Part shown: positions 5,825 through 63,675 of the stretch, one piece after another
Position numbering within the stretch: position 1 is the first letter of the stretch
How the letters are laid out: the number at the start of each line of letters is the position of its first letter
DNA from: an uncultured Opitutaceae bacterium
Lineage (GTDB): Bacteria > Verrucomicrobiota > Verrucomicrobiia > Opitutales > Opitutaceae
Reading direction: 5' to 3'
Assembly (NCBI GenBank): GCA_903891325.1
Contig: CAITEC010000029.1
Coordinates: 539 to 64,538 of the forward strand
DNA length: 64,000 nucleotides
Position numbers and translations under genes: made by a program
The notes under the pieces: generated by a model
Databases searched by the model: none
The model's input: only the letters and a program-made list of their open reading frames with translations
Told to the model about the DNA's origin: nothing

Positions 5825-6664
5825 ATGCTACAGTGGGTGATGCTCGCTGAATCCCCCCAAACGCTGGACGGAGGCGTCCAGGCAGAATTTTTCCGCCGCG
5901 AGGGCTATTTTCTCGCCCGCGGCCTGTTCAGCTCCGCGGAGGTCGCGGAGATCCGGGCGATATTCGACCGGGTTCACGCCGAGGGGGTCCCGGGCCACTA
6001 TGAGCTCGAGAAGGTCCACGACGGCGTGGCGAATCCGGGCGATCCCCTTTACCAGTATCCCCGGGTGATGCAGCCGCACCGGTTCAATGGCAGGATCCGT
6101 GATTTTGTCATCCACCCCGGCGTGATCGCGACCCTCCGCGCGCTCTTCGGCGGGGAACCGGCCGCCGCGCAGAGCATGTTCTACTTCAAGCCCCCCGGCG
6201 CGCGCGGCCAGGCGCTCCACCAGGACCAGTTCTACCTGATGGTCGAGCCGGGCACCTGCATCGCGGCCTGGACGGCGATCGACGACTGCGACCTGGACAA
6301 CGGGGCGATGATGGTGGTGCCGCGGACCAACGAGACGGCCGTCATCTGCCCGCAGACCGCCGACAGCTCCGTGAGCTACACCTCCCACTTCGTGCCGGTC
6401 CCCGAGGGCCGGAAGGCAGAGATGGTCCGGATGAAGGCGGGCGACACGCTCTTCTTCAATGGCAACCTGATCCACGGCTCCGGGCCCAACCGGTCCAAGG
6501 AGCGGTTTCGCCGCTCTTTCATCGCCCACTATGTGCCGGCGACCACGCGGAAGCTCTCCCAGTTTTACATGCCCCTGGTGACGCCCGACGGGACGGAGTT
6601 TGCGACCGCCATCCAGGCCGGCGGCGGCCCCTGCGGCGAGGGCTGGGCCGGAGCCCAGCACTAA
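5825..6664 (+). CDS. phytanoyl-CoA dioxygenase (PhyH) family Fe(II)/2OG oxygenase
   Basis: ALHQDQFY (HxD) and GNLIHGSGPNRS (distal His); start set at the first ATG after the upstream stop (track ORF is 5'-extended). Confidence 0.85.
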   Translation: MLQWVMLAESPQTLDGGVQAEFFRREGYFLARGLFSSAEVAEIRAIFDRVHAEGVPGHYELEKVHDGVANPGDPLYQYPRVMQPHRFNGRIRDFVIHPGVIATLRALFGGEPAAAQSMFYFKPPGARGQALHQDQFYLMVEPGTCIAAWTAIDDCDLDNGAMMVVPRTNETAVICPQTADSSVSYTSHFVPVPEGRKAEMVRMKAGDTLFFNGNLIHGSGPNRSKERFRRSFIAHYVPATTRKLSQFYMPLVTPDGTEFATAIQAGGGPCGEGWAGAQH

Positions 6665-6672
6665 GGGCGATT

Positions 6673-8559
6673 TTGAAACGCGCGCGCGAGAACCTGGCGA
6701 GGGCTTCGCTCGTCGCCTGCGCCACGCTGGTCGCCTACCTTCCCGCGCTGAACGGCGGGTTCATCTGGGACGATGATTTCCATGTGACCGGCGGGTCGCT
6801 TCGCTCCCTGCACGGGCTCCGGCGGATATGGACCAGCGTGGGCGCGACGCCCCAGTATTACCCGCTTCTCCACTCGGCCTTCTGGCTTGAGCACCGGCTC
6901 TGGGGCGACTCGGTCCTTGGCTACCACCTGCTGAACGTGGCCCTCCATGCGACGGCGGCCTGCCTGTTCGGGGCCGTCCTCAGGTTGCTCCTCGAGCGGC
7001 CGGCCGGGTCCCCGGCGCGGTTTTTCGACGGCCCCCTGGTCGGCGCCCTGCTGTTCGCGCTCCACCCGGTCTGTGTTGAGTCGGTCGCCTGGATATCCGA
7101 GCAGAAGAACACGCTCTCGGCGGTGTTCTACCTCCTTGCCGCACTGGGCTACCTGAAATGGGCGTCCGGCGGGCGCGGGGCGCCCGTCCGGTACCTGCTG
7201 GCGACGCTCTTCTTTGCGGCGGCACTCCTGACAAAGAGCGTGACCGCCACGCTTCCCGCCGCCCTCCTTGTCATCGCCTGGTGGAAGGGCGGCAGGCTTT
7301 CCCTGCGGAGGGATGTCGCGCCCCTGGTCCCCTGGCTGGCGGTGGGAGCGGCCGCCGGGTTCTTCACGGCCTGGGTCGAGCGAACCTCGATCGGGGCGAC
7401 GGGCGCGGGGTTCAGCCTGGGCGTGATCGAGCGCTGCCTGCTCGCGGGCCGCGTGGCCTGCTTCTATGCCGGCAAGCTGCTCTGGCCCGCGGGGCTCACG
7501 TTCATCTACCCGCGCTGGGTCGTCGACGCGTCCGCGGGCTGGCAGTATCTTTTCCCCCTTGCCGCCCTCGCGCTCCTGGCTGCCGCGGCCCTGGCCTTCC
7601 GGCGGAACCGCGGGGTGCTCGCCGGGCTCCTGGTCTTTGTCGGGACGCTCCTGCCCGTCCTCGGCTTCCTGAACGTGTATCCCTTCAGGTACTCCTATGT
7701 GGCGGACCATTTCCAGTACCTTGCCTGCATGGGGCTGATCGGGCTCGCCGCCGGCGTGTGGGAGGCCCGCGCCCTCCCGCGCGCGCTTCCGCTCGCCCTG
7801 GCCTGCGTCCTGGGCCTGCTCACATGGAGGCAATGCGGCATGTACCGGGACGCGGGGACGCTCTACAGCGAGACGATCGCCCGGAATCCGGACTGCTGGA
7901 TGGCCTATAACAACCGGGGAAACCTCCTGCTCGGCCAGGGGCGCAATGCCGAGGCCATCTCCGACTACGAGGCCGCGCTCGGGCTGAAGGGCGACGACCC
8001 GATCCCGCACAACAACCTGGGGCTTGCGCTCGCGGCCTCCCACCGGCTCCCGGAGGCGATCGCCGCCTTCCAGGACGCGCTCCGTCTGAAGCCCGACTAC
8101 CCTGAGGCCCGTGTCAATCTCGCGGCGGCCCTGCGCCGGTCCGGCGACATTCCCGGGTCCATCGCCCAATGCGAGGAGGCGCTGCGCCTCCTGCCCGGTT
8201 ATCCGGAGGCGCGGGCCGACCTCGCGCGGGCCCTTGCCGCCGAGGGGCGGCTTCCCGAGGCCATCGCGGCATTCGAGACGGCCATCGGCCTGGAGCCCGC
8301 CAATCCGGAGTTCCATGCCGACCTGGGGACGGCGCTCTCACGATCCGGCCGGCTTCCGGCGGCCATTTCCCAGTATGAGGAGGCCCTGCGCCTGAACCCG
8401 GGATACGCGGAGGTTTGCAACAACCTGGGAGTCGCGCTTGCGCAGGCCGGCCGCCTTTCGGAGGCGGAAGTCCGCCTCGAGCAGGCGGTACGGCTCAAGC
8501 CGGGCTATTCCGACGCCAGCGAAAACCTGGCGCTTGTCCGCCGGGCCCTCGGCCGTTGA
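6673..8559 (+). CDS. TMTC-like membrane protein: multi-TM glycosyltransferase-like N-domain plus C-terminal TPR repeats
   Basis: N-terminal FIWDDDFHVT, HPVCVESVAWISEQKNTLS and many hydrophobic helices; the C-terminal half is a run of 34-aa TPR units (AYNNRGNLLLGQGRNAEAISDYEAALGLKGD ...). Confidence 0.75.
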   Translation: MKRARENLARASLVACATLVAYLPALNGGFIWDDDFHVTGGSLRSLHGLRRIWTSVGATPQYYPLLHSAFWLEHRLWGDSVLGYHLLNVALHATAACLFGAVLRLLLERPAGSPARFFDGPLVGALLFALHPVCVESVAWISEQKNTLSAVFYLLAALGYLKWASGGRGAPVRYLLATLFFAAALLTKSVTATLPAALLVIAWWKGGRLSLRRDVAPLVPWLAVGAAAGFFTAWVERTSIGATGAGFSLGVIERCLLAGRVACFYAGKLLWPAGLTFIYPRWVVDASAGWQYLFPLAALALLAAAALAFRRNRGVLAGLLVFVGTLLPVLGFLNVYPFRYSYVADHFQYLACMGLIGLAAGVWEARALPRALPLALACVLGLLTWRQCGMYRDAGTLYSETIARNPDCWMAYNNRGNLLLGQGRNAEAISDYEAALGLKGDDPIPHNNLGLALAASHRLPEAIAAFQDALRLKPDYPEARVNLAAALRRSGDIPGSIAQCEEALRLLPGYPEARADLARALAAEGRLPEAIAAFETAIGLEPANPEFHADLGTALSRSGRLPAAISQYEEALRLNPGYAEVCNNLGVALAQAGRLSEAEVRLEQAVRLKPGYSDASENLALVRRALGR

Positions 8560-8623
8560 TCGGCCGGCCACTTCCTTCTTTCCACGTTCCCAGTTACCAA
8601 TCACCGTCCTGACAGACTTTCCC

Positions 8624-10090
8624 ATGCCCCTACGCATCGCCTTCATCGGAGCCGGATCGATCGGCTTCACCCGGAAACTGGTGGCCGATCTCCTCGCCGT
8701 GCCCGAGTTCGCCGGCGTCGAGTTCGCGTTCACGGACATCAACCGCCGCAACCTGGAGATGGTGGCCGAGCTGTGCCGGCGCGACATCGCCGCGAACGGA
8801 ATGAACGTCGTGGTGCGCGCGGACACGAACCGCCGCGCGATGCTCAAGGGCGCCCGGTACGTCTTCAATGTCACGCGGATCGGCGGGCTCGAGGCGTTCG
8901 CGACCGACATCGACATCCCGCTCAAGTACGGGATCGACCAGTGCGTGGGCGACACGCTGTGCGCGGGCGGGCTCATGTACGCGCAGCGCGGGATCCCGGC
9001 GATCCTCGATTTCTGCCGCGACATCCGCGAGGTCGCCGCCCCGGATTGCCTGCTGCTGAACTACTCCAACCCCATGGCGATGATGACCTGGGCGGCCAAC
9101 AAGTACGGCGGCGTGCGCTGCGTCGGGCTCTGCCACGGGATCCAGCACGGGCACCACCAGATCGCCCAGGCGCTCGGCGCCGGGAAGCAGTCCGACGTCG
9201 ACATCATCTGCGCGGGGATCAACCACCAGACCTGGTACGTCGACGTGCGGTGGAACGGGCGGAAGGTCTCCGCCGTGGAGCTGCTCGCGGCCTTCGAGCG
9301 GCACCCGGAGTACTCGAAGACCGAGAAGGTCCGGATCGACGTCCTCCGGCGGTTCGGCTGCTACAGCACCGAGTCGAACGGGCACCTCAGCGAGTACCTG
9401 GCGTGGTACCGCAAGCGCCCGGCGGAGATCGCCCGCTGGATATCGATGGACGTGTGGATTAACGGCGAGACCGGAGGCTACCTGCGGGTCTGCCGGGAGG
9501 CCCGGAACTGGTTTGAGTCGGAGTTCAGCCGCGGCGCCGACGGCCACCCGCCGCTTTCCTACGGGCAGAAGGAGCGCTCGACGGAGCACGGGAGCTTCAT
9601 CATCGAGGCGTTCGAGACGGGCCGCATCTACCGCGGGCACTTCAACCTTCCCAACGCCGGGACGATCACCAACCTGCCCAACGACGCGATCACGGAAAGC
9701 CCGGGATTTGCGGACCGTTTCGGCTTCAACCGGCCGGTGGTCGGCGACCTGCCCGCGGGCTGCGCGGCGGTCTGCAGTAATTCGATCTCCGTCCAGCGGC
9801 TGGGGGTGGAGGCCGCCGTGCACGGCGACGACACGCTGCTGCGCCAGGCATTCCTGCTCGATCCCCTGACCGGGGCGGTGTGCAATCCCCCGGAAGTCTG
9901 GCAGCTTGTGGACGAGATGCTGGTCGCCGGCGCCCCGTGGCTCCCGCAGTACAAGCGATCGATCGCCGCCGCCCGCCGCCGGCTCGCAAAGGGCCCGAGG
10001 ATCAAGACCAATGTGACAAGGGGCGCCGCGCGCCTCGAGACGCGGTCGTTGGCCGCCCTGAAGCGACTCAACCCGCGCGAGGGGCACTGA
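8624..10090 (+). CDS. glycoside hydrolase family 4 (NAD/Mn-dependent alpha-galactosidase/alpha-galacturonidase type)
   Basis: MPLRIAFIGAGSIGF Rossmann N-terminus, NYSNPMAM, VGLCHG motif; start at the first ATG with a GH4-like N-terminus. Confidence 0.85.
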   Translation: MPLRIAFIGAGSIGFTRKLVADLLAVPEFAGVEFAFTDINRRNLEMVAELCRRDIAANGMNVVVRADTNRRAMLKGARYVFNVTRIGGLEAFATDIDIPLKYGIDQCVGDTLCAGGLMYAQRGIPAILDFCRDIREVAAPDCLLLNYSNPMAMMTWAANKYGGVRCVGLCHGIQHGHHQIAQALGAGKQSDVDIICAGINHQTWYVDVRWNGRKVSAVELLAAFERHPEYSKTEKVRIDVLRRFGCYSTESNGHLSEYLAWYRKRPAEIARWISMDVWINGETGGYLRVCREARNWFESEFSRGADGHPPLSYGQKERSTEHGSFIIEAFETGRIYRGHFNLPNAGTITNLPNDAITESPGFADRFGFNRPVVGDLPAGCAAVCSNSISVQRLGVEAAVHGDDTLLRQAFLLDPLTGAVCNPPEVWQLVDEMLVAGAPWLPQYKRSIAAARRRLAKGPRIKTNVTRGAARLETRSLAALKRLNPREGH

Positions 10091-12152
10091 TCTCGATCGT
10101 CCGCTCCCGGCCCAGGTGCACCAGCTTCGCCGTCGCCGGGTAGGCGTCGGGGGGCAGGATCGGATTGACGGAGACTCCCTCGAACGAGGGTTCGATCCCC
10201 ATGAGCCAGCGCGGAAGCGCGAGGGAGACCAGGCCCTGGTCGGAGAGGAAGGGCTCGTAGGATATCAGCTCGTAATCCTGCCAGGCGGTCGGGCTGGGCT
10301 TTCCCGAGAAATCCCAGTAATTGCATCCCTCGACCAGCGAGGTGGCCGCGAAGCGGCCGACCACGCGGCGCCAGGTGGCGAGCGCCTCCTCCGCGAACCC
10401 GGTCTTCACCAGGGCGCCGATCCAGTAGAAGTTCCACGACACCAGGCAGCCCCCGTTCATCGTCTGCCCGAATCGGGTCACGTCACTCTTGTACTCGCGA
10501 AACATCATCGAGTCGCGCTCCGCGTCGTAAAAGTTCGTCTGGAGGGAAAAGCAGGCCTCCCAGTCCGGGCCGAGCTCGTGCCGCCGGCGGAGGATCGCCT
10601 CGACCACGCGCCGGGCGCGCCCGGGAGGGACCAGGCCGGCGGTTATCGCCTGGAGCTGGGGTCCGGCGTAGAGGTGGAAGTGGGGTTTTCCCGCGAGGTC
10701 GATCCAGTCCGCGTAGAATCCGCGATCCTCATCCCAGAAAGCGGTATTGTACGTTTCCACCAGGGTGTCCGCGAGTCCATCGGCCCGTCTCGCCTCCGCG
10801 GCGTCGCCCAGCCAGCGGGCGGTCGCCGCCTGCGCCCGCAGCCCGACCGCCGCCAGGACGTTGAGCGAGGCGATCCGGCCGTTGCGCGCGATCCAGTCCC
10901 AGTAGTCGTTCCCCGTGTCCCGCGCGGTCGCGATCATGCCGCCGCCCCGTTCCATCTGGCCGGCGATGATCGCGGTCGCCCGGCAGGCCCCTTCCCAGTG
11001 GCGCCCGGCCCAGTCCCGGTCCCCGGTCAGGAGGAGAAGGTCGCGGAACGAGGCGAGAAAGGAGGGGAGGATGTCGAGCGAGGTGTCGGCCTGGTAGCCC
11101 GGTCCGGCGCTGCCGGTTGCAGCCAGGCTGAGGGCGGTCCGGCCGATCTGCGCGGCGAGGACCCGGCCCGGGTCCATGACATCCGCCCCGAGCGGCCCGG
11201 CCGGCACGCCCCATCCGGCCATCTGGGAATACATGTAGGAGCAGAGCTGGGCCACGTAGCCGGAGGGTTCGTTCCCGAATCGCCAGTCGTGGGTGTCCGC
11301 GAGGATCGCGCAATTGGCGTGGGTGTCGAAGAAGCGGCGGTTCACCGCGGCTTCCGCCCGGAGCGGACCGCTCACCTCCGCGGCGAGCCGGACGCCGGTC
11401 TCGGTTGAGTCCGGCTCGAGGACGAGGGTGAGGACGAGCCTGTCCCCGGCCTTCATCCGGCGCGTCTCCCCGGGCTCGCACCAGGGCGTGTGCGCGAGAA
11501 GCGACATGAAATTCAGGATCTCCCCCTTTTTCAGGTGGTGGCTGACGGTGGCCCGCAGGTCGCCGTTTGGCATCGCGTGGGAGAGCAGCTTGGCGACCCC
11601 CCATCCGCCCGGGGTGCTGCGCGTGCTCCGGGATGCCGGCATCGTCGCGGTACCGCCGAAGGAACCCTCGACGCTGTAGAACCCGTCCTGGCGGGTGTCG
11701 CGGTCCCAGAGCTGGAAGACGAGCGCCTCGCCCCAGGGAGCGTGCGCGGAAAAGAAGAGGCCGGGGATGAAGGCGTCCGCAAGTTCCGTGTCCGCGAGCC
11801 AGGACTGCTCGATTGTCCACTCGAGCCGACGGCCGTCCAACCTCAGGATCCAGCGCTCCCGGACGTTCCCAAATTCAATGGAGTCGACCTCCAGGGCGGT
11901 TCCGGCGAGGTCCCGGGCCCGGCCGGAGCGGCACGACGAGCTGAGGTGCATCCCGCCGGACGCGTCGAAATAGCCGGTCTGCGCGCCGCACACGGTCGCA
12001 ATCGGGTGCCGCGGGGAGCGGGGCGATCCTGTCTTCAGAAGATTGGCGCACCAATGCCCCGTGCCGCCCGCATCGAAGCGAAGCGAGTTGAGCATCGCGC
12101 CGTCAACGGACAGCGACAGGTTCCAGTACGGGTTGTGAAGCTCGCGCCCCAT
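10068..12152 (-). CDS. (alpha/alpha)6 six-hairpin glycosidase-like protein, family not assignable by eye
   Basis: 694-aa GC3-biased ORF, last gene of the minus array; C-terminal half resembles six-hairpin GH domains (NGRIASLNVLAAVGLR ... MNGGCLVSWNFYWIGAL); no signal peptide. Confidence 0.7.
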   Translation of the reverse strand: MGRELHNPYWNLSLSVDGAMLNSLRFDAGGTGHWCANLLKTGSPRSPRHPIATVCGAQTGYFDASGGMHLSSSCRSGRARDLAGTALEVDSIEFGNVRERWILRLDGRRLEWTIEQSWLADTELADAFIPGLFFSAHAPWGEALVFQLWDRDTRQDGFYSVEGSFGGTATMPASRSTRSTPGGWGVAKLLSHAMPNGDLRATVSHHLKKGEILNFMSLLAHTPWCEPGETRRMKAGDRLVLTLVLEPDSTETGVRLAAEVSGPLRAEAAVNRRFFDTHANCAILADTHDWRFGNEPSGYVAQLCSYMYSQMAGWGVPAGPLGADVMDPGRVLAAQIGRTALSLAATGSAGPGYQADTSLDILPSFLASFRDLLLLTGDRDWAGRHWEGACRATAIIAGQMERGGGMIATARDTGNDYWDWIARNGRIASLNVLAAVGLRAQAATARWLGDAAEARRADGLADTLVETYNTAFWDEDRGFYADWIDLAGKPHFHLYAGPQLQAITAGLVPPGRARRVVEAILRRRHELGPDWEACFSLQTNFYDAERDSMMFREYKSDVTRFGQTMNGGCLVSWNFYWIGALVKTGFAEEALATWRRVVGRFAATSLVEGCNYWDFSGKPSPTAWQDYELISYEPFLSDQGLVSLALPRWLMGIEPSFEGVSVNPILPPDAYPATAKLVHLGRERTIEISAPRAG

Positions 12153-12155
12153 CGC

Positions 12156-16825: not shown

Positions 16826-17788
16826 TCAGCAGATCGGCTCCGATCCCTTGAGCAGGGACGAGTCCCAGGCCATCACCTGGCGGGCCTTCGATTTCCAATA
16901 GTACTTCAGGCGCTTGTTCTTCCAGCCCCGGTACAGCTCCCTCCACTGGACGCCACCCATGTGGGGGCGCAGCGAGGAAATGTGGACCTGGTCGCGGGCG
17001 GGCTGGTAACGGAAATCGCAGGAGAGGCGGATCCGGCCGGGCTTCCGGTTCGGAAGCGCCTTGTGCACGACGTGGCTCGGGAAGGTGATGATGTCCCCGC
17101 ACTCGTAGTCGCCCTGGACCCAGGTGTGGTCCATGTCGCAGAGCATGCTCTCGAAGCCGCCGGCCCCCTTGGCCGTCTTGACCTTGAGGACCTCCTCGCG
17201 GTGCGAACCCCTCAGGATGCTCAGCCCTCCCAGGCTCATCGGGCAGTCGCCCAGCGGAAACCAGCAGGTCCAGAAGCTGTGGGCGCCCTGGATGTAGATG
17301 TAGTCCTGGTGGGGCGGCGTCGGGTTGAAGCTGGGCGCCGGCAGGAGGACGCGCGCGATATTGCGCGGGTGGGGGAGGACCGCCCCCTGGAAGAGCGCCC
17401 GGTAGAGCGCGATCAGCCGGGGATGGTGGGCCAGGGAGTGGAAAAGCTCCAGCTTCTGGATGTCGATGTACGCCTGCTTCCCGACCCCGATGTACTTCAG
17501 GCTCGGGTCGAGCCGGTCGGAGGCGGCGATCGCGTCGAGGTCGCCGATCCCGTCGATCAACTTCGTGCCCTTCCGGATCCAGCCGTTGCGCTCGACGATC
17601 TCCAGTATCTGCCGGCGGACCTCCATCAGGGGCTCCTTCGGGAGGAGGCCCTTGAAGAAGAGGTATCCGTCACGGTCCGCCCGGGCGCGAAGCGCCTTGG
17701 GCGAGGACAGGAGCGGCGTCGAATTCAGGAATCCGGTGATGACCTTCTTGGGCATCTTCCGGTGCCGGGGTTTCTTCAGCATGATCAT
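16826..17788 (-). CDS. PhyH family Fe(II)/2OG dioxygenase
   Basis: TPPHQDYIYIQG (HxD) and FPSHVVHKALPN (distal His). Confidence 0.85.
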   Translation of the reverse strand: MIMLKKPRHRKMPKKVITGFLNSTPLLSSPKALRARADRDGYLFFKGLLPKEPLMEVRRQILEIVERNGWIRKGTKLIDGIGDLDAIAASDRLDPSLKYIGVGKQAYIDIQKLELFHSLAHHPRLIALYRALFQGAVLPHPRNIARVLLPAPSFNPTPPHQDYIYIQGAHSFWTCWFPLGDCPMSLGGLSILRGSHREEVLKVKTAKGAGGFESMLCDMDHTWVQGDYECGDIITFPSHVVHKALPNRKPGRIRLSCDFRYQPARDQVHISSLRPHMGGVQWRELYRGWKNKRLKYYWKSKARQVMAWDSSLLKGSEPIC

Positions 17789-21688: not shown

Positions 21689-21705
21689 AATTTCAATCTG
21701 AAGAT

Positions 21706-21758
21706 GTCATGTCCCAACTTCTTAAATCGAATGGCGATTTAAGAAGTTGGGACATGAC
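21706..21758. repeat. perfect 23-bp inverted repeat (hairpin, 7-nt loop) in a low-GC intercistronic insert
   Basis: gtcatgtcccaacttcttaaatc (21706-21728) / gaatggc / gatttaagaagttgggacatgac (21736-21758); the right arm encodes the last 6 codons and the stop of the upstream gene. Confidence 0.9.
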
Positions 21759-22296
21759 CCCTTAATGCATTGTTGTAGAGATCCCCGCCGACGGAGTCGT
21801 TGAGCACCACCGCGGGAAAACGCCGGAAACGCATCACATGGATCGCCTCGCTGAGCAGCTCGGGGAAGGCGACGACCCGGGCCTCCTCGATGCACAGCGC
21901 AAGCAGGGCCCCGGTCCCGCCAATCGCGCCGAAATAGACTCCCTGGTTGCGGACGAGCGCCTCCTTCACCTCCGGATTCAGGTAGCCCTTGCCGATGAAT
22001 CCGCGAAGCCCCTGGGCGAGGAGGGTCGGCATGAAGGGGTTCATCCGGCCGCTCGTCGTCGGGCCGGCCGAGCCGACGACCGCGCCGGGCTTCGCCGGCG
22101 AGGGGCCCACGAAGTAGATAAGCTGGCCGGCGAGCTCGACCGGAAGGGGCTCCCCTGCGCCGATCATCCGGAAGAGCCGCGCGCAGGCCTGGTCCCTTCC
22201 GGTGAGGACCGTGCCGGTCAGCTCCACCTCGTCGCCGGCCCGGAGCCCGGCGGCGGTCGCCGGGTCGAGGGGAAGGGACAGTTCGCGGGGGGTCAC
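21739..22296 (-). CDS. Fe-S hydro-lyase beta subunit (class I fumarase / L-tartrate dehydratase TtdB-type)
   Basis: GPTTSGRMNPF motif; GTG start overlaps the alpha-subunit stop (GTGA). Confidence 0.85.
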   Translation of the reverse strand: MTPRELSLPLDPATAAGLRAGDEVELTGTVLTGRDQACARLFRMIGAGEPLPVELAGQLIYFVGPSPAKPGAVVGSAGPTTSGRMNPFMPTLLAQGLRGFIGKGYLNPEVKEALVRNQGVYFGAIGGTGALLALCIEEARVVAFPELLSEAIHVMRFRRFPAVVLNDSVGGDLYNNALRGHVPTS

Positions 22297-23135: not shown

Positions 23136-23150
23136 GCGGCGGGGGTGAAA

Positions 23151-24113: not shown

Positions 24114-24125
24114 GGATATTTTTTT

Positions 24126-24198
24126 AACAGGAAGGCCGGGAAGATCGTGAAGGTATCGGAAATCAGGCCTTCCCGTCGGGCTTCCCGATCTTCCTGTT
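24126..24198. repeat. repeat family C copy 1: imperfect long hairpin built from gaacaggaag/atcgggaag units
   Basis: aacaggaaggccgggaagatcgtgaagg ... ggccttcccgtcgggcttcccgatcttcctgtt; sits in the 108-nt E1-beta/E1-alpha intercistronic gap; related copy at 56165-56323. Confidence 0.75.
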
Positions 24199-24221
24199 CA
24201 AATTGGTTTGGATGATTGGAT

Positions 24222-56415: not shown

Positions 56416-57897
56416 ATGTACCTAATCACAATCGGATTCTGCATGGTCCTGGTGATTACGGTGTATTTTTTGAACAATCCGCTGAGGCACGGGCGGTGGT
56501 TCCTGATCCGGCGCTTCATCAACTGGTTCCCGCTGGGGATGACCTACGCCTTCCTCTACATGGGGCGCTACAACCTGACAGTGTCCAAGACGGCGCTGGG
56601 ATCGCTCATGACGAAGGAGGACTTCGGCTGGATCGCGGCGGCGGGCACCTGCACCTACGCCCTATCCTTCATCGTCAACGGCCCCCTGGTGGACCGGATC
56701 GGCGGGAAGAAGGGAATCCTCATCGGCGCCCTCGGCTCCTCCTTCGCCAACATGCTCCTGGGCGTCCTCACTTACCTTGTCCTGACCCACCGGTTGAAGA
56801 TCCGGCTGGTCACGGCGTTCTCGGCGATCTACGCGCTCAATATGTATTTCCAGAGCTACGGCGCCGTCTCGATCATCAAGATCAAGGCGTACTGGTTCCA
56901 CGTCCGCGAGCGCGGTACCTTTGGCGCGATCTTCGGATCCCTCATCTCAATCGGGATCTATTTTGCGATAGACTGGGGCCAGGGCATCGCGCAGATGACG
57001 AAGGCCAGCATCGGGCCAGATGCCACGTGGCTTCATCGGTCCATCCTCCATGTGTTTGGCCTCAAGGGCGGCGGCGTGGACGCGACCTGGGCGGTGTTCC
57101 TGATTCCCGCGGTCATCCTCATCTTCTGGGCGCTGGTCGACTGGCTGCTGATCAAGAACACGCCGGAGGAGGCGGGCTTTGCCCCCTTCGACGCGCACGA
57201 CGCCTCGTCCGGCCAGATGCACATCACGCTGACGAAGATGGACCTCCTCAGGAAGGTCTTCACCAGCCCGCTCATGCTGATGATCGCCCTGATCGAGATG
57301 ACCTCGGGCATTTTTCGGGACGGCATCACGAACTGGTACTTCATCTTTTCGGCCGAGGTGCGGCAGCCCGGGGCCCTGTTTTTCCAGCAGCACTGGGGCT
57401 GGCTCCTCTGCATTTTCGGCATCGTGGGCGGTTTCGCCGGCGGACTGACCTCCGACAGGTTCTTCCAGTCCCGGCGCGGTCCCCCGGCCGCCATGCTATG
57501 CGGCATTGTCCTGGTCGCCTCGCTGGTGATGGCATCCTTCCTCTTCTCCTCGCCGGTCATCGCGGGCTCGGCCGCCGTGGCGATTGTCATGTGCGCGGTC
57601 GGCATCACCTCGCTCATGTCGGGCACGGCGGCCGCCGACTTTGGCGGACGCAAGGCGACCGCCACCTGCATGGGCATCGTGGACGGGTTCGCCTACGTCG
57701 GGAGCGGCCTTCAGGCGGTGTGCCTGAGCCATATCACGACCTTTAACTGGCGGTTGTGGCCCCTCTTCCTCGCGCCCTTCGCCCTTCTCGGCCTGATCAT
57801 TGCGATCAAGATATGGACTGCGCTTCCCGCCGCGACGCGCCGCTACATCGCCGAGGTCGAGGAGTGCGACGACAAGGTGGTGCCCGTGCCGGCCTGA
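56416..57897 (+). CDS. MFS transporter, organophosphate:Pi antiporter (OPA, UhpC/GlpT-like) family
   Basis: About 12 hydrophobic helices; FLYMGRYNLTV and VNGPLVDRIGGKK resemble the OPA-family signature. Confidence 0.8.
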   Translation: MYLITIGFCMVLVITVYFLNNPLRHGRWFLIRRFINWFPLGMTYAFLYMGRYNLTVSKTALGSLMTKEDFGWIAAAGTCTYALSFIVNGPLVDRIGGKKGILIGALGSSFANMLLGVLTYLVLTHRLKIRLVTAFSAIYALNMYFQSYGAVSIIKIKAYWFHVRERGTFGAIFGSLISIGIYFAIDWGQGIAQMTKASIGPDATWLHRSILHVFGLKGGGVDATWAVFLIPAVILIFWALVDWLLIKNTPEEAGFAPFDAHDASSGQMHITLTKMDLLRKVFTSPLMLMIALIEMTSGIFRDGITNWYFIFSAEVRQPGALFFQQHWGWLLCIFGIVGGFAGGLTSDRFFQSRRGPPAAMLCGIVLVASLVMASFLFSSPVIAGSAAVAIVMCAVGITSLMSGTAAADFGGRKATATCMGIVDGFAYVGSGLQAVCLSHITTFNWRLWPLFLAPFALLGLIIAIKIWTALPAATRRYIAEVEECDDKVVPVPA

Positions 57898-57913
57898 CGC
57901 CCCCTATTATTTC

Positions 57914-59059
57914 ATGGCAACGAAGGACAAAAAACTGCGCATCGGCTTCGTCGGGACGGGCTTCATGGGCCAGTGCGCGCACCTGCGGAATTACGCGACG
58001 ATCGAGGGATGCGAGATCGTCGCCCTGGCCGAGATGCGGGAGGACATGGGCAGGCGGGTGGGCGCCAAATACGGCATCCCGAAGGTCTACAAGCTCGCCT
58101 CCGAGATGCTCGCGAAGGAGAAGCTCGACGGGATCGTCGCCTCGCAGCAGTTCAACCGCCACGGGATCGTCGTGAGCGAGATCCTCGCGGCGGGGCTGCC
58201 CGTCTTCATCGAGAAGCCCCTGGCCGCCTCGCTGCCGGTGGGCGAGCAACTGGCGGCGGCCGACAAGGCCGCGGGCGGGAAGGTGATGGTCGGCTACCAC
58301 AAGAGGAGCGACCCGGCCACGATCTACGCCAAGGCGGAGATCGAGCGGCTGAAACAGACCGGCGAGATCGGCAAACTGCAATATATCCGCGTTACGATCC
58401 CCTCCGGGGACTTCATCGCCAACGGTGTCTTCGACGGGCTGCTCGGGACCGACTCCCCGGCGCCCGCGGACATCGACCCGAAGGACCCCGGCCTGAGCGA
58501 GGAGCAAAACACCGCCTATTTTTACTTCGTCAATTTCTTCATCCACCAGCTCAACCTGATCCGGCACCTGCTGGGGGAGGACTACAAGCTCTCCTACGTG
58601 GACCCGTCCGGGATCGTCATCGTTGGGCACGGGCTGGGCACGGGCATCCCGGTGACCCTGGAGTGCATCCCGTACACGACGATTTCCGACTGGGAGGAGG
58701 TCGCGCTGGTCGGCTTCGAGTCCGGCTACCTGAAGCTGACGCTTCCCGCCCCGCTGATCCTCAACCGCGCGGGCGAGGTGGAGATCGTCAAGGACCCGAA
58801 GAAGGGGACGGCCCCGACCCCCGGGCTGCCGCCATACCCGATCCACTTCCAGCATCCCTATTCCCATCTCAACGAGAGCAACTGGAGCGCCGGCAGCACG
58901 TTCAAGCCCAAGATGCCCCAGGACCACGCGATGCGGATCCAGGCGGTCAATTTTCTCCGCTTTGTCCGCGGCGAGGCGCCGCCCCCGGTTGGCGCCGCCG
59001 AGGCGCTGAAGGATTTGCAGCTGGGCCGCGACTGGCTCAGGATGAAGTACGGAGCCTGA
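57914..59059 (+). CDS. Gfo/Idh/MocA family oxidoreductase
   Basis: LRIGFVGTGFMGQCAH Rossmann motif, VFIEKP. Confidence 0.9.
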   Translation: MATKDKKLRIGFVGTGFMGQCAHLRNYATIEGCEIVALAEMREDMGRRVGAKYGIPKVYKLASEMLAKEKLDGIVASQQFNRHGIVVSEILAAGLPVFIEKPLAASLPVGEQLAAADKAAGGKVMVGYHKRSDPATIYAKAEIERLKQTGEIGKLQYIRVTIPSGDFIANGVFDGLLGTDSPAPADIDPKDPGLSEEQNTAYFYFVNFFIHQLNLIRHLLGEDYKLSYVDPSGIVIVGHGLGTGIPVTLECIPYTTISDWEEVALVGFESGYLKLTLPAPLILNRAGEVEIVKDPKKGTAPTPGLPPYPIHFQHPYSHLNESNWSAGSTFKPKMPQDHAMRIQAVNFLRFVRGEAPPPVGAAEALKDLQLGRDWLRMKYGA

Positions 59060-59064
59060 AATTT

Positions 59065-60162
59065 ATGCCTGTAAAATTCACCAAACTGACGGTCGCGGCG
59101 GAAAGCTACGAGTCGGCCGGTGTGTGGGACGTCGACGGCGACGGGATTCCCGACATCGTCTCCGGCTCGTTCTGGCACAAGGGCCCGGACTTCCGGCAGC
59201 GCTTCTTTATCAGCGACGTGAACCGGATGGGGGAGTACTGGAACGATTTTGCCACGATTCACATGGACATCAGCGGCAGCGGCCGGATGGATTTCGTGAC
59301 CGGCGGCTGGGGCGGGGATTTCCGCTGGGTGGAGTGCCCGGCGGACCCGACCAAGCCCTGGACGGTCCACCCGCTGGGAGATATCGGCAACATCGAGACG
59401 ATCCGCGCCGCCGACGTCGATGGTGACGGGCATCTGGAGATCGTCCCGAACACCCCGGGAAAGCCGGTCACGATCTTCAAGCGGGTGCTCGACGCCAAGG
59501 GCAAGGGCACGGGGAAATTTGTCTCCCACGTCCTCAAGCGGGAGGGCCCCGGCTCGGAATTTTCCGGTCACGGGCTGGGATTTGGCGATATCGCGGGGAA
59601 CGGCCGCACCGACATCCTCCTTTGCGACGGCTGGCTGGAGGCCCCGGAGAAACCCTACGAGCAGCTCTGGAAGTTCCACAAGGAGTACGACCTGGGCTGC
59701 GCGAGCGTGCCCATCATCGTGGCCGACGTGAACGGGGACGGGCTGAACGACCTCATTGTCGGCCAGGCCCACAACTACGGGCTGGACTGGTACGAGCAGA
59801 GGAAAAACAAGGACGGCACGCGCTCCTGGATCAAGCACCCGATCGACCCCTTCAACTCTCAGTACCACGACCTGATCTGGGCCGACATTGACGGCGACGG
59901 GAAGCCCGAGCTGGTGACCGGCAAGCGCTTTCGCGCCCACTGCGGCCACGACCCGGGGGAATTTGACGACCTGGGCGTCTACTATTTCAAGTGGAACGGC
60001 ACCGGCTTCGCCAAGCAGGTCATCAGCTACGGCCAGCCCGGGATCGGGGCCGGATGCGGGATCCACTTCGCGCTGGCGGATCTGCGCGGGACCGGCCGGA
60101 TCGACGTGGTCGCCCCGGGCAAGGACGGGCTCCACGTGTTCTTCAACGAGGGCTCCAAGTGA
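59065..60162 (+). CDS. FG-GAP/VCBS repeat protein without signal peptide
   Basis: Repeated DVDGDGIPDIV, DVDGDGHLEIV, DVNGDGLNDLIV, DIDGDGKPELV calcium-binding-like loops. Confidence 0.85.
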   Translation: MPVKFTKLTVAAESYESAGVWDVDGDGIPDIVSGSFWHKGPDFRQRFFISDVNRMGEYWNDFATIHMDISGSGRMDFVTGGWGGDFRWVECPADPTKPWTVHPLGDIGNIETIRAADVDGDGHLEIVPNTPGKPVTIFKRVLDAKGKGTGKFVSHVLKREGPGSEFSGHGLGFGDIAGNGRTDILLCDGWLEAPEKPYEQLWKFHKEYDLGCASVPIIVADVNGDGLNDLIVGQAHNYGLDWYEQRKNKDGTRSWIKHPIDPFNSQYHDLIWADIDGDGKPELVTGKRFRAHCGHDPGEFDDLGVYYFKWNGTGFAKQVISYGQPGIGAGCGIHFALADLRGTGRIDVVAPGKDGLHVFFNEGSK

Positions 60163-61016
60163 AAAATGGGATCGGCGTAAATTCCTGGGTCTGGACCTCC
60201 CCGTTCACCGACGATTCCGCAGCCCTCATCGGCCGCGCGGCTCGGATGGGTTTCGACGCCTTTGAGGTGGCGGTCGAGGACCCGGCCCACTTCAAGGGCG
60301 ACAAGGTCGCCAGGGCCCTGCGGGCGACGGGGCTGCGGCCCGTCATCTGCGGGGCCTTCGGCCCGTCGCGCGACCTGACGCACGACGATCCCCGGTTCCG
60401 CGCCGAGAGCCTCCAGTACATCACCGACGTGCTGGGGCTCTGCGACAAGTGGGGCGTCAAGGTCTTCGCCGGCCCGATGTATTCGGCAGTCGGCAAGCGG
60501 CGGCAGGTGTCGCCCGCGCAGAGGAAGCGGGAGTGGGACCGCGCAGTCGCCGGGCTCCGGAAGGCCGGGAAGCGGGCGGCCGACCACGGGGTAACGCTCG
60601 CCATCGAGCCGCTCAACCGCTTCGAGACCGACCTGGTCAACACCTCCGCCCAGGTCGTGAGGCTCGTGGACGAGGTCGACCATCCCAGCGTGAAGGTCCA
60701 CCTCGACACCTTCCACATGACGATCGAGGAGGACTCGATCCTCGAGGCGATCAAGGGTGCGGGGAGCCGGCTCGCCCACTTCCACGCCTGTGAGAACAAC
60801 CGAGGCACGCCGGGCAACGGGCTGGTCGCCTGGGAGCAGGTGGCCAAGGGCCTCAGGGCGGTCCGCTACAAGGGCGACCTGGTCATCGAGTCCTTCACCC
60901 CGCAATGCCTGGCGATTGCGGCTGCCGCCGCCATCTGGCGGCCGCTTGCCCCCTCCCAGGACTCGCTTGCCCGGGGCGGGCTGGCCTTCCTGCGGAAGCT
61001 GGTCGCGAAGGCGTGA
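60159..61016 (+). CDS. xylose-isomerase-like TIM barrel, ketose 3-epimerase-like
   Basis: GTGA overlap with the upstream gene; LAIEPLNRFET, HLDTFHMTIEE, HFHACENNRG metal-ligand pattern. Confidence 0.85.
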   Translation: MKNGIGVNSWVWTSPFTDDSAALIGRAARMGFDAFEVAVEDPAHFKGDKVARALRATGLRPVICGAFGPSRDLTHDDPRFRAESLQYITDVLGLCDKWGVKVFAGPMYSAVGKRRQVSPAQRKREWDRAVAGLRKAGKRAADHGVTLAIEPLNRFETDLVNTSAQVVRLVDEVDHPSVKVHLDTFHMTIEEDSILEAIKGAGSRLAHFHACENNRGTPGNGLVAWEQVAKGLRAVRYKGDLVIESFTPQCLAIAAAAAIWRPLAPSQDSLARGGLAFLRKLVAKA

Positions 61017-61047: not shown

Positions 61048-61812
61048 ATGCTAAGCTACGACCAGGTTCAGGCCTATGAGCGGGACGGCTACGTCCTCGC
61101 CAAGGACGTATTCACGCCGGCCGAGGTGGAAGTCCTCCTCGCCGCCACCGAGCGGGAGGGACGGATGACCGAGAATGTATGGGACATCCCGGACGCGGCG
61201 GGCCGCTCCAGCAAGCTGGCCTTCTGGACGGACGTGCGCGCGGACCTGTTCGGCGCCGTGACCACCCATCCGCGGCTCGTCAACAATGCGCGCATGCTCC
61301 TGCGCGAGGACCTCTACCACTGGCACAGCAAGCTGAGCGTCAAGCAGCCAAAGACCGGCGGGGCCTGGGAATGGCACCAGGACTACGGCTACTGGTACGG
61401 GGACGCCTGCCTCTATCCGCGGATGATCTCCTGCATGATCGCCCTGGACCCGTGCACGCGGGCCAACGGCTGCCTCAAGGTGATCGCCGGTTCGCACCTC
61501 CTGGGCCGGATCGACCACGGCAAGGTGGGCGGCCAGAACGGGGCGGACCCGGCGCGCGTCGAGGCGATCATGGCGCGGCTCCCCGTCCACCTCTGCGAGG
61601 CGCCTCCCGGAAGCGTGCTCTTTTTCCACTGCAATACCTTCCACTCCTCGGAGGCCAATACGTCGGAAATTCCGCGCCGCGCCTACATCTGCTGCTACAA
61701 CGCGCTGTCCAACGAGCCGTATTCCCAGGAGAAGGCCCACGGCAAGGCGGTCCCGATCCAGGTCGGGGCGGACGACTCGATCACGCGCTTTGCCCAGGCG
61801 GCGGTCGCCTGA
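61048..61812 (+). CDS. PhyH family Fe(II)/2OG dioxygenase
   Basis: EWHQDYGYWY (HxD), FFHCNTFHSSEANTS (distal His). Confidence 0.85.
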   Translation: MLSYDQVQAYERDGYVLAKDVFTPAEVEVLLAATEREGRMTENVWDIPDAAGRSSKLAFWTDVRADLFGAVTTHPRLVNNARMLLREDLYHWHSKLSVKQPKTGGAWEWHQDYGYWYGDACLYPRMISCMIALDPCTRANGCLKVIAGSHLLGRIDHGKVGGQNGADPARVEAIMARLPVHLCEAPPGSVLFFHCNTFHSSEANTSEIPRRAYICCYNALSNEPYSQEKAHGKAVPIQVGADDSITRFAQAAVA

Positions 61813-62646
61813 TCATCCGGCCCGCCGGCGCTCCTCGCTCGGGCTCCGGCCGGTCGCCAGCCGGAAGCGCCGGTGGAAGTACTGCGGGTTTCCCAGCCCG
61901 GCCTCGATCGCGACCGCCTTGATCGGCAGGCGCGTCGCCGCGAGGAGGTGTCGCGCGAGCTCGATCCGCCGGCCGAGCACGTAGCGCTTCAGGGGGACGC
62001 CGTGCCGGGCGCGGAACTGCCGCGCGAGGTAGTTCTGGCTCACGCCGACCTGACGGGCGAGCACCGCGACATCCAGCGGCGCCCGGTAGTTCTCGTCGAG
62101 GAACCGGCGGACCCGCTCGACCACCTGGTCGACCCGGGTGGGGGAGGAGCCGGCGGCCCGCTCCTCGGGGCTCGCGGTGACAGCGATCCACAGCAGCAGC
62201 GCCTGGAGCGCGGCGCCCGCCGCGCGGCCGGCCAGGGCCGATCGGGGTCCGCCGCTCTCGGCGAGCCGGTGCAGGTCGATCACCTCCTGCAGCCTCTCGC
62301 GCACCGCGCGCTCGTGCGGCCCGGTGCGCCAGTGCAGGGGCAGCCGCAGCGGCGAACGCCCCGGCGGGAGGGCCCTGAAGTGCACGCAGAGATGGTGGCT
62401 GTTCCCCTCCAGGTCGTAGCGGGACACCAGGCCGGCCGGCGTCAGGGTGAAGTCCCCGGGTTGGAGCGGCACCTCGCGCCTCCCCAGCCACATCCGGCCC
62501 ACGTGGTCGTTTAGGTGCAGGGCGACCGTCTTCGGGGAACGGTAGAGGAAGTCCGAATTGTGTTCCGGCATCGGGAAGCGCCCCCCGCTGACCAGGGCGG
62601 GCAGGGCCCCCGCGGGCCAGGAAAGATGGGAGGTCGAATGGGACAT
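61813..62646 (-). CDS. AraC/XylS family transcriptional regulator (second)
   Basis: C-terminal HTH LARQVGVSQNYLARQFRARHG ... IKAVAIEAGLGNPQYFHRRFRLATGRSP; start at ATG 62646 (track ORF is 5'-extended through repeat A3). Confidence 0.85.
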   Translation of the reverse strand: MSHSTSHLSWPAGALPALVSGGRFPMPEHNSDFLYRSPKTVALHLNDHVGRMWLGRREVPLQPGDFTLTPAGLVSRYDLEGNSHHLCVHFRALPPGRSPLRLPLHWRTGPHERAVRERLQEVIDLHRLAESGGPRSALAGRAAGAALQALLLWIAVTASPEERAAGSSPTRVDQVVERVRRFLDENYRAPLDVAVLARQVGVSQNYLARQFRARHGVPLKRYVLGRRIELARHLLAATRLPIKAVAIEAGLGNPQYFHRRFRLATGRSPSEERRRAG

Positions 62647-62672
62647 CGGAAAATTGGATAGTGGGTCGGTCC

Positions 62673-62749
62673 GAGGGTGGAGCGGGACCTCCGGGCACGC
62701 TGGTTTGGGAATGTCGCCGCTCAGCGCGCTCGGAGATCGCGCTCCACCC
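62673..62749 (+). repeat. repeat family A, copy 3 (full length)
   Basis: gagggtggagcgggacctccgggcacgctggtt + divergent centre + gctcagcgcgctcggagatcgcgctccacc. Confidence 0.85.
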
Positions 62750-62898
62750 AGGAACTGCAAACCTAGCAATTTAAGTGTTGAAAAGAGACAATAGAGAGCG
62801 GAAAGCGACAACAGAATAACGTTACGTGGCTTTCACTTGCCGCCCAAGTCTTCCATTGAACCCAATTCCCACCCGCACCTGTATCCCTACGGACACCC

Positions 62899-63675
62899 AT
62901 GAAAAACGCAAAAGAGATCAAGGAATTTTTTGATGAAAACGGTTACTACTTCGCCCGCGGGGTCTTTTCGCCGCAGGCCATCCGCGAGATGGAGTCGGAA
63001 TTCGACCGGATCGTGTCCCACAACACGGCCAGGAACGACAACTCGAACCGCAAGTGGGTGGGCGACAACAAGGACCTGCTGGCCGCCCGGGCCGACTCGG
63101 TGATCGTCCACACCCACCAGCTCCAGTCCTATTCCGCGCGCTGGCTCCAGGCCGTCCTCGACCCCGGCTTCCTCGACGTGGTCGAGGCGATCCTCGGGCC
63201 CGACATCATCCTGCACCACACGAAGCTCCTGCAGAAGCCCGCGGAGAAGGGCGCGCCCTTCCCGATGCACCAGGACTGGTCCTACTTCCCCTCGGTCAAC
63301 AACACCATGCTCGGCGGGTCGATCCACGTCACCCGGGCGACCGACGACATGGGCTGCCTGCGCGTCTATCCCGGGTCCCACCGGCTTGGCCGGACGACCG
63401 GGACCAACGGCCAGGAAGCGAGCGCGTTCATGGAGAAAAACTACCCGCTGTCGGGGGCCAAGGTGATCGAGGCGGAGGCCGGCGACGTCCTCTTCTTTCA
63501 CTACTTCACCGTCCACGGGTCGATGCCGAACACGTCGAAGAACACCCGGAAGAACGTCCTGGTCCAGCTTCATTCCGGCAACGACCGGATCGAGGGGGAC
63601 AACCACCATATCAATTCCCGGCTTGTCCTCCGCGGATTCAACAACATCGCAACCCGGAGCTACGTGGAAGCCTAA
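62899..63675 (+). CDS. PhyH family Fe(II)/2OG dioxygenase
   Basis: PMHQDWSYFP (HxD), FFHYFTVHGSMPNTS (distal His). Confidence 0.85.
   Translation: MKNAKEIKEFFDENGYYFARGVFSPQAIREMESEFDRIVSHNTARNDNSNRKWVGDNKDLLAARADSVIVHTHQLQSYSARWLQAVLDPGFLDVVEAILGPDIILHHTKLLQKPAEKGAPFPMHQDWSYFPSVNNTMLGGSIHVTRATDDMGCLRVYPGSHRLGRTTGTNGQEASAFMEKNYPLSGAKVIEAEAGDVLFFHYFTVHGSMPNTSKNTRKNVLVQLHSGNDRIEGDNHHINSRLVLRGFNNIATRSYVEA

Follow-up and report, generated by a model that had tools for sequence, protein, structure and literature searches.

Four genes for PhyH-type (PF05721) Fe(II)/2-oxoglutarate (2OG) oxygenases, here PhyH1 to PhyH4, lie among glycosidase and sugar-conversion genes in a 64,000-nucleotide stretch of contig C29 (CAITEC010000029.1) from an uncultured Opitutaceae bacterium; this whole stretch is called the window below. 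We conclude, with about even confidence, that the four encode intact cytoplasmic oxygenases of old PhyH subfamilies and form part of a 29-copy expansion serving carbohydrate catabolism. This reading is carried by the family assignment and intact catalytic residues of the four proteins, the absence of leader peptides, a genome-wide enrichment of PhyH genes beside sugar-catabolic genes, and conserved synteny around PhyH2.

The window has ~69% G+C, and genes were therefore called by codon-position bias. A Pfam scan of 50 candidate open reading frames (ORFs) returned four PF05721 matches (59–139 bits against a gathering score of 22 bits), exactly those that the original prediction, made from the sequence alone, had singled out as carrying an intact HxD...H triad:

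5840..6664 (start alternatively 5825), plus strand: PhyH1, PF05721 E = 3.9e-31, 109 bits (ORF 5633-6664)
16826..17788, minus strand: PhyH2, PF05721 E = 9.8e-16, 59 bits, between a glycoside hydrolase (GH) family 78 gene and a GH140-like gene
61048..61812, plus strand: PhyH3, PF05721 E = 4.5e-40, 139 bits (ORF 60757-61812)
62899..63675, plus strand: PhyH4, PF05721 E = 7.4e-33, 115 bits, divergent from an AraC-family gene

The PhyH1 start is ambiguous (5825 in the original prediction, 5840 by the codon-bias caller), and the other three starts are not in doubt. Translation gave the motifs HQDQFY/IHGSGPN (PhyH1), HQDYIY/VVHKALPN (PhyH2), HQDYGY/FHSSEAN (PhyH3), and HQDWSY/VHGSMPN (PhyH4). In an alignment of the four proteins with eight orthologues, the iron-binding triad was invariant in 12/12 sequences, as was an arginine 12 residues past the distal histidine (R229 in PhyH1 numbering); the invariant columns in that numbering were H132-Q133-D134, H217, R229, G27, G160, G206, and F211. 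In PHYH structures, an arginine ~11–12 residues past the distal histidine binds the C5 carboxylate of 2OG. Within the PhyH2 family (10-member alignment), H160, Q161, D162, and H242 were invariant and R254 nearly so. PhyH2 alone was modelled with AlphaFold2 (predicted local distance difference test 76.8, predicted TM score 0.80, weak around the HQD loop at residues 156–169), and the top Foldseek matches, PtlH (2rdq, E = 1e-16) followed by SnoN and also PHYHD1, confirmed the PhyH-type double-stranded β-helix fold and gave no clue to the substrate. ESM Atlas look-ups returned generic 'PhyH' clusters only. Because the triad and the arginine are conserved and the PhyH2 model fits the fold, all four look like catalytically competent Fe(II)/2OG oxygenases. 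Their pairwise identity is only 20–27%, which indicates old, distinct subfamilies rather than recent duplicates. The best PDB match of PhyH1 (2a1x, E = 1.8e-15) and of PhyH4 (E = 2.4e-15) is human PHYH; phytanoyl-CoA 2-hydroxylase proper (EC 1.14.11.18) was considered for this pair and rejected, as the best E value is only ~2e-15 and no lipid or CoA-ester genes adjoin.

The host genome (3.29 Mb in 140 contigs, 94.7% complete) contains 29 PF05721 matches, whereas 14 control genomes contained none. Among 151 sampled genomes of the same class, 39 had any match and ~10 were expanded, with up to 18 matches scored per genome. Four PhyH genes in one window are only marginally above chance: at least four within 58 kb arose in 5.5% of 5000 random placements of 29 genes (P ~ 0.055). 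Tight pairs (<5 kb) were in excess, with six seen where 1.0 was expected (P = 0.0016). What calls for an explanation goes beyond the window and is a lineage-specific expansion. Among the searched genome contigs, the closest named relative of PhyH2 came from a Phycisphaerae metagenome-assembled genome. AraC/HTH_18 regulators number only six in the host genome; the window has two of these, and three of the six are immediate neighbors of PhyH genes.

To characterize the expansion, we fetched 20 kb around each of the other 25 PhyH copies and scanned 219 neighboring ORFs. A sugar-catabolic gene occurred within ±2 genes of 19/29 PhyH genes (18/24 with tight clusters merged) vs 5/32 random genes (one-sided Fisher test, p = 7e-5; p = 9e-6 at locus level). 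The control comprised 32 genes drawn with a fixed seed (128 neighbors scanned), and the list of sugar families was fixed before the control was read. AP_endonuc_2 lay within two genes of 4/29 PhyH genes vs 0.5 expected (p ~ 0.0008), and AraC/HTH_18 within one gene of 3/29 vs 0.1 expected (p ~ 0.0002). Representative host loci are:

L003 and L008: PhyH adjoins Gfo/Idh/MocA and a sugar transporter
L004: PhyH overlaps GH2
L005: PhyH between a GH29 fucosidase and an acetyl-xylan esterase
L006: PhyH adjoins ribulose-phosphate epimerase and PfkB
L009: PhyH adjoins a trehalase-like GH, two TIM barrels, Gfo, an aldolase, and a kinase
L010: PhyH between a sugar ABC system and ThuA

Further PhyH neighbors in the host were GxGYxYP, GH127, GH78-like, GH38, DUF2961, and RhaT genes.

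Within the window, the gene neighborhoods are as the original prediction described them. PhyH2 is wedged co-directionally between GH78 (gap 40 bp) and the GH140-like gene (gap 48 bp) in a 21-gene minus-strand run from 34356 down to 10068. PhyH3 and PhyH4 flank an AraC regulator, and Gfo/Idh/MocA and xylose-isomerase-like TIM-barrel genes precede PhyH3 in its run:

10068..14642, minus strand: two large proteins of no assigned family (828 and 694 aa) at the end of the 21-gene array, no Pfam match
14639..16777, minus strand: GH140-like glycosidase (Apiosidase-like Pfam, PF13204 E = 7e-67), without leader peptide
17829..20525, minus strand: GH78 α-L-rhamnosidase (Bac_rhamnosid6H E = 6e-113), without leader peptide
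20546..34356, minus strand: upstream part of the 21-gene array
56416..61016, plus strand: MFS transporter, Gfo/Idh/MocA, FG-GAP, and xylose-isomerase-like TIM-barrel genes, in a run closed by PhyH3
61813..62646, minus strand: AraC-family regulator between PhyH3 and PhyH4 (HTH_18 E = 2.8e-20)
34490..38663, plus strand: first AraC regulator, lipoprotein solute-binding protein, and two ABC permeases (Pfam)
2184..10090, plus strand: PhyH1 surroundings, with ECF sigma factor, FecR-like anti-sigma factor, 674-aa protein, PhyH1, TPR protein, and GH4 (Pfam, gene calls)

The gaps in the MFS-Gfo-FG-GAP-TIM-PhyH3 run are 16, 5, -4, and 31 bp, the last being that to PhyH3. The upstream part of the array begins with an enolase-superfamily gene, Fe-S hydro-lyase alpha/beta, E1 alpha/beta, a citryl-CoA-lyase-like gene, and CoA-ligase alpha/beta; there follow a lipoyl protein, an ABM-like ORF, Gfo, three SDRs, a second enolase-superfamily gene, and a TIM barrel. 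By Pfam, the glycosidase-type genes of the window are GH140-like, GH78 (two clear, one weak), GH28-like, GH2, GH4, and GH20, with a weak DUF4450 match. Every one of these glycosidases (GH4, GH140-like, GH78, GH2, DUF4450 protein, GH20, GH78-like, and GH28-like, between 8624 and 54177) is devoid of a leader peptide; for the GH140-like gene, only 17 codons separate the upstream stop from the start. The PhyH enzymes likewise have no leader peptides, and the N-terminus of the solute-binding protein is lipobox-like. The ABC system at 34490..38663 probably imports oligosaccharides. Leaderless glycosidases together with 2OG/Fe(II)-dependent oxygenases imply that the chemistry takes place in the cytoplasm, with oligo- or monosaccharides that have been imported as its substrates instead of extracellular polymer. 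The whole depolymerization is apparently cytoplasmic and supplied by one ABC importer.

We then asked how far these contexts are kept among relatives. A class-level search of 201 genomes (E ≤ 1e-30 for PhyH2, E ≤ 1e-40 for the others; counts include the host genome) found members of the PhyH2 family in 9 genomes, of PhyH3 in 12, of PhyH4 in 8, and of PhyH1 in 19; 31 contexts were fetched and 251 ORFs scanned. Three genomes of the same taxonomic family have all four orthologues, in scattered positions. For the PhyH2 family, sugar contexts comprised L037 (GH38, Gfo, sugar ABC), L040 (sulfatases, DUF2961), and L041 (GH78 and a sulfatase, beside a relative with 44% identity to PhyH2 in genome G191), with an ABC permease at L022. 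All six PhyH4-family loci examined adjoin GH38 (2), GH4, Gfo and ThuA, or a sulfatase and AraC (2). At 8/10 PhyH1-family loci there is a divergent AraC gene, and the other neighbors include aldose 1-epimerase (2), UxaC and PfkB, GH36 and GH29, a TIM barrel (AP_endonuc_2), and PfkB/Gfo. PhyH3 relatives at 44–49% identity sit with MFS and TIM genes (L046), FG-GAP (L047), rhaM, FAH, GH29, and galactokinase (L049), or AraC only (L048, L050). The PhyH3 operon is thus echoed by MFS, TIM, and PhyH in L046, by FG-GAP-PhyH in L047, and by PhyH-Gfo-sugar transporter at the host paralogue L003.

A metagenome scan with the PhyH2-family alignment yielded 324 relatives, of which the best 80 were taken; 52 could be examined (28 were too short), with 161 neighbors scanned. 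L068 and L069 (86% identity) and L070 (71%) all preserve the order GH78-PhyH-GH140-~845-aa protein, the ~845-aa homologue having a conserved position after GH140, and L070 retains the upstream enolase-superfamily gene as well. In L110 and L120 (51–52% identity to PhyH2), RhaT-GH106-PhyH is followed by a fused FA_desaturase-Rieske(-reductase) oxygenase (FA_desaturase-Rieske(-NAD_binding); L110:4406-6415, L120:6827-9220). Rhamnosidases of two unrelated families recur beside the PhyH2 subfamily in three separate lineages. FGGY sugar kinases adjoin PhyH2-family genes in L087, L088, and L093; ThuA, Gfo, and an SASA esterase lie near one in L078; and AraC is adjacent in 12/52 examined loci.

These contexts suggest a mechanism in which oligosaccharides would enter through the window's ABC system and MFS transporter and be cleaved in the cell by the leaderless glycosidases (GH78, GH140-like, GH4, GH2, GH20, GH28-like). 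Each oxygenase would hydroxylate one sugar-derived small molecule that is refractory to ordinary dehydrogenase, dehydratase, and kinase routes, and the substrate would induce the genes through the AraC-type regulators that neighbor many family members. Were an O-methyl carbon hydroxylated, the hemiacetal would collapse to a free sugar hydroxyl and formaldehyde (oxidative O-demethylation). We tentatively favor this as the best single mechanism, with a confidence well below even; that the substrate is a sugar, which sugar it is, and that the chemistry is demethylation are all inferred from context. Sugar O-demethylation is plausible because PF05721 enzymes are described as demethylating 2'-O-methyl-ribose (PMC12709175). 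In that December 2025 paper, the 2'-O-methyl group of ribose in free nucleosides is taken off by a bacterial enzyme from a metagenome (FJS), by human PHYHD1, and by relatives from bacteria, plants, fungi, and giant viruses, in a 2OG-dependent reaction that releases formaldehyde, an activity that its authors call widespread in PF05721; human PHYH was inactive as a demethylase, and a term search of the paper returned no mention of free methyl sugars (PMC12709175). More generally, the oxygenases very probably take part in carbohydrate catabolism in this lineage, a judgement to which we give slightly better than even weight. The oxygenase-assisted step in polysaccharide catabolism that had originally been proposed thus keeps its link to sugar genes (19/29 vs 5/32; PhyH2 synteny), and any such step would act on imported sugars.

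Several observations weigh against a role in sugar catabolism. The sugar-gene list was drawn up after the PhyH neighborhoods had been seen, paralogues are non-independent data points in the enrichment test, and Gfo adjacency in the host genome was not significant (2/29, p = 0.27). No formaldehyde-handling genes were recognized nearby, and a search for Fae in the host genome (94.7% complete) was negative, which says little either way. A link to URO-D-like methyltransferases was tried and rejected (host genome, 0/29 at ±1 gene; 2/29 at ±2 vs 0.8 expected, p = 0.2). Five of the nine class-level PhyH2-family loci lie among housekeeping genes (e.g. ClpB/FtsK, ClpXP, RNase E, sulfite reductase), and in the complete genome G112 the four orthologues are spread over 1.2 Mb (0.52, 0.66, 1.63, and 1.71 Mb). 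For PhyH3 orthologues at 66–67% identity, the neighbors are DUF4440, a 4HBT thioesterase, and a DeoC-type aldolase instead of the MFS-Gfo-TIM set. A hand tally put a sugar gene within ±2 genes in only ~16 of the ~43 distinct contexts from metagenomes, and the contexts of distant orthologues are mixed, many being merely AraC-PhyH pairs. Orthologues in unrelated surroundings, which the original prediction had named as an argument against itself, are hence part of the picture (the PhyH2 housekeeping loci, the scatter in G112), next to a GH78-PhyH-GH140 order kept at 86% and 71% identity. Finally, none of the nearest characterized relatives has a sugar as its substrate: that of PtlH is a terpenoid acid, those of GriE and EctD are amino-acid-like compounds, and that of PHYH is an acyl-CoA.

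Part of this evidence favors a different reading, that the oxygenases act on non-carbohydrate small molecules (amino acids, ectoine-like osmolytes, terpenoid or aromatic acids, xenobiotics) and that sugar islands merely house inducible catabolic genes. The nearest solved relatives are PtlH for PhyH2 (2rdn/2rdq, E = 6e-15 by sequence, 1e-16 by fold) and, for PhyH3, 7e01/7dzz (E = 4e-27), GriE (5nch, E = 7e-27), and EctD (4mhr, E = 7e-19); the stand-alone AraC-PhyH pairs among housekeeping genes and the thioesterase and aldolase beside close PhyH3 orthologues fit as well. Against it stand the four-fold sugar-gene enrichment, the position of PhyH2 and PhyH3 inside tight sugar operons, the kept GH78-PhyH-GH140 synteny, and the independent GH106/RhaT and GH78 associations. 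Curated models also speak against the known non-sugar functions: none of the four reached an NCBIfam equivalog cut-off (EctD, PtlH, PhnY-type, halogenase). For TIGR02408 (EctD, cut-off 336.5 bits), PhyH1 scored 31.5, PhyH3 91.2, and PhyH4 53.9 bits, with no match for PhyH2; for NF045813 (PtlH, cut-off 550 bits), PhyH2 scored 63.8 and PhyH4 40.1 bits, all far below the cut-offs. We regard a non-carbohydrate role as unlikely.

A second alternative shares the context evidence for sugar catabolism and places the oxidation away from methyl ethers, as ring or C6 hydroxylation of a deoxy sugar or as oxidative epimerization or rearrangement. SnoN and SnoK are PhyH-like enzymes that carry out oxidative epimerization and rearrangement on an antibiotic sugar. 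SnoN is the second-best fold match of PhyH2, and SnoK, SnoN, and EvdO, which act on sugar moieties according to the titles of their PDB entries, are among the sequence matches; the PhyH3 operon moreover has a Gfo oxidoreductase and a TIM-barrel isomerase- or dehydratase-like protein. NAD-dependent Gfo and SDR enzymes are abundant in the same operons, however, which makes an O2/2OG route seem redundant, and our literature search found no catabolic precedent, so we consider this alternative distinctly unlikely.

Third, one or more of the four could be demethylases of free 2'-O-methyl-nucleosides, of the FJS/PHYHD1 kind, for nucleoside salvage. This activity is reported in PF05721 members of very different clades, and FJS is described as close to ectoine hydroxylases, as PhyH3 is (PMC12709175). 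PHYHD1 (2opw) matches PhyH1 (E = 6e-11) and PhyH3 (E = 4e-9), and a nucleoside hydrolase adjoins the PhyH2-family relative L140. On the other hand, nucleoside-metabolism genes adjoin none of the four, 29 copies far exceed the needs of salvage, and PhyH2 and PhyH4 have no PHYHD1 match at E ≤ 0.01 by sequence (the comparison being via PHYHD1, not FJS); a salvage role appears improbable. Least probable is oxidative cleavage of sugar sulfate or other esters, complementing or replacing hydrolytic sulfatases in the manner of the 2OG-dependent alkylsulfatase AtsK: sulfatases do adjoin PhyH at host loci L001 and L009 and in relatives (L040, L041, L052, L055, L122/L123, L127/L128), but they are so numerous in these bacteria that some adjacency is expected, the 50 scanned ORFs of the window include no sulfatase by Pfam, and AtsK belongs to the TauD family, not PF05721.

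Within the preferred reading of sugar O-demethylation, some candidate sugars fit better than others. The original prediction had pointed to the methylated sugars of rhamnogalacturonan II (RG-II), a target that we find poorly supported and not the best candidate. In Bacteroides thetaiotaomicron, the RG-II locus has GH137, GH138, GH139, GH141-143, GH106, and GH127 beside GH140. Among the Pfam matches of the window, only the GH140-like gene fits this pattern, and a PDB sequence search of the 828-, 694-, and 1097-aa window proteins found no match to solved RG-II enzymes at E ≤ 0.01; the 694-aa protein weakly matched rhamnosidase B (2okx, E = 1e-3), and the 828-aa protein had no PDB match. The habitat also argues against RG-II. 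Two RNA runs that contain window DNA (metatranscriptomes, Logan contigs; shares 0.16 and 0.05) are labelled peat, and bryophyte walls are reported to hold <1% of tracheophyte RG-II (PMC6918356). RNA-library contigs identical to the window covered PhyH1 (5856-6038, 6282-6493), GH140 (16157-16406), GH78 (19173-19630, 19977-20127), and other array genes, and PhyH2 had non-zero depth; such contigs show presence, not levels, strand, or co-transcription, and may include DNA carry-over, while parts of the stretch that they leave uncovered carry no meaning. Because the window has three GH78-type genes and relatives of PhyH2 are linked to rhamnosidases, our guess, inferred from gene content, is that the leading candidate substrate of PhyH2 is methylated L-rhamnose, e.g. 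the 3-O-methyl-rhamnose of moss and fern arabinogalactan proteins (AGPs). This sugar is described as typical of moss AGPs, including those of Sphagnum (PMC6918356).

Other features of these loci deserve mention in their own right. The glycan array of the window includes a block at 21739-28902 (minus strand) of Fe-S hydro-lyase, E1, citrate-synthase-like, and CoA-ligase genes with a stand-alone lipoyl protein, and a 99-aa ABM-monooxygenase-like ORF at 28603-28902 (minus strand, E = 5e-5). Its E1a/E1b pair (23151-25178) has a parallel at host locus L011 (L011:9723-14005, contig C107), where PhyH genes and 2-oxoacid dehydrogenase E1 subunits stand in the strict order PhyH, E1a, PhyH, E1b, PhyH, preceded by a class-II aldolase and PfkB and followed by an aldolase_II-SDR fusion and GH38. 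Elsewhere in the host, FA_desaturase lies near PhyH/GH2/GH78-like at L004, and FA_hydroxylase and RhaT lie next to PhyH at L017. The closest PhyH3 orthologues (L043-L045, in G196, G160, and G112) have in common a ~420–440-aa protein without Pfam family, DUF4440, 4HBT, and a DeoC/LacD-type aldolase, and L043 additionally has an aldehyde dehydrogenase. The host genome also contains a second large expansion, of MtaA/URO-D-like proteins (26 URO-D (PF01208) matches where one HemE is expected, seven of them on contig C91). In relatives, URO-D genes lie beside or within two genes of PhyH at L022, L040, L052, L062, L066, L071, L074, L081, and L087; at L062, URO-D is in an operon with S-methyl_trans and the RACo corrinoid activase. 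Between the second ABC permease and a 358-aa protein, ~1.4 kb (38664-40070) have no confident gene call; the surrounding 4-kb bin is lower in G+C (0.64), and a TTG-started ORF (39756-41147) would narrow the gap. Two genes downstream of PhyH4 and outside the window, a P450 gene (C29:66391-67572) follows an S9-type hydrolase and is itself followed by a heparinase II/III-like protein, an SSF transporter, and a DegT aminotransferase. This P450 was considered as a sugar demethylase and rejected, its best PDB matches being generic (8yhn, YjiB; E ~3e-78 to 8e-78).

Glycans of mosses, ferns, algae, and bacteria commonly contain sugars capped by methyl ethers or other groups, and such sugars block normal catabolic routes. 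Our literature search (open-access papers and bioRxiv) found no paper linking PhyH or 2OG enzymes to glycan loci, and the only sugar demethylase that it tied to a glycan-degradation locus was a marine P450. If PhyH enzymes demethylate sugars, a function could be assigned to a very large share of PF05721 that has no annotation, an O2-dependent step would be added to models of peat and soil carbon turnover, and an accessory class would be needed in genome predictions based on carbohydrate-active enzymes. We further offer, as a speculation that is more likely wrong than right by a wide measure, that Phycisphaerae and other glycan degraders could have, in their PhyH expansions, an unrecognized enzyme layer of polysaccharide catabolism. 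Its members would be cytoplasmic 'de-capping' oxygenases that depend on O2 and 2OG, respond to a dedicated AraC sensor each, and strip methyl ethers (and conceivably other caps) from sugars of plants, mosses, and algae after import, with PhyH2 as a methyl-L-rhamnose (acofriose-type) demethylase that would let the peat bacterium use moss AGP glycans.

Several characterized systems can be compared with the four proteins. Human PHYH (2a1x), the family founder and best PDB match of PhyH1 and PhyH4, has the triad and arginine in common with them; its substrate is an acyl-CoA, and neither PhyH1 nor PhyH4 has a fatty-acid or CoA-ester gene beside it. PtlH (1-deoxypentalenic acid 11-beta-hydroxylase) is the closest solved relative of PhyH2 (fold TM 0.65/0.78, 23% identity) but is a biosynthetic terpenoid hydroxylase in an entirely unlike gene context. 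GriE, 7dzz/7e01, and EctD (4mhr/3emr), the closest solved proteins to PhyH3, are small soluble PF05721 enzymes acting on free polar metabolites; there are no ect genes here, however, and PhyH3 lies in an MFS-Gfo-TIM operon. In rhizopine catabolism, MocD-MocE-MocF is reported to O-demethylate a methylated cyclitol, with a membrane di-iron enzyme rather than Fe/2OG. The FA_desaturase-Rieske-reductase fusion of L110 and L120 presumably resembles this type, and since it stands beside PhyH there, either enzyme could be the demethylase.

FJS and PHYHD1 have the same Pfam family and cofactors as the four proteins, act on a free cytoplasmic small molecule, and take a methyl ether off a sugar (ribose) hydroxyl with release of formaldehyde, which is the reaction proposed for the window's enzymes; they differ in that their substrates are nucleosides, that no nucleoside genes lie near PhyH1–4, and that the similarity, measured to PHYHD1 only, is weak. 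Methyl sugars block catabolism, and dedicated P450 demethylases are described in marine polysaccharide utilization loci (PMC6292453, PMC9400963): the CYP236A P450s are 6-O-methyl-D-galactose demethylases in porphyran loci of marine Flavobacteriia (PMC6292453, PMC9400963, PMC10033563). In the role proposed here, the PhyH enzymes would resemble CYP236A as oxygenases encoded among glycosidase genes that strip a methyl ether from a released sugar for catabolism, with formaldehyde as by-product, although CYP236A is a haem protein unrelated to them and depends on ferredoxin and a reductase instead of Fe(II)/2OG. If the speculation on a de-capping layer is right, the PhyH enzymes would be an Fe/2OG equivalent to these marine P450s, and an equivalent that uses oxygen to the corrinoid (URO-D-type) systems found beside these genes in some relatives.

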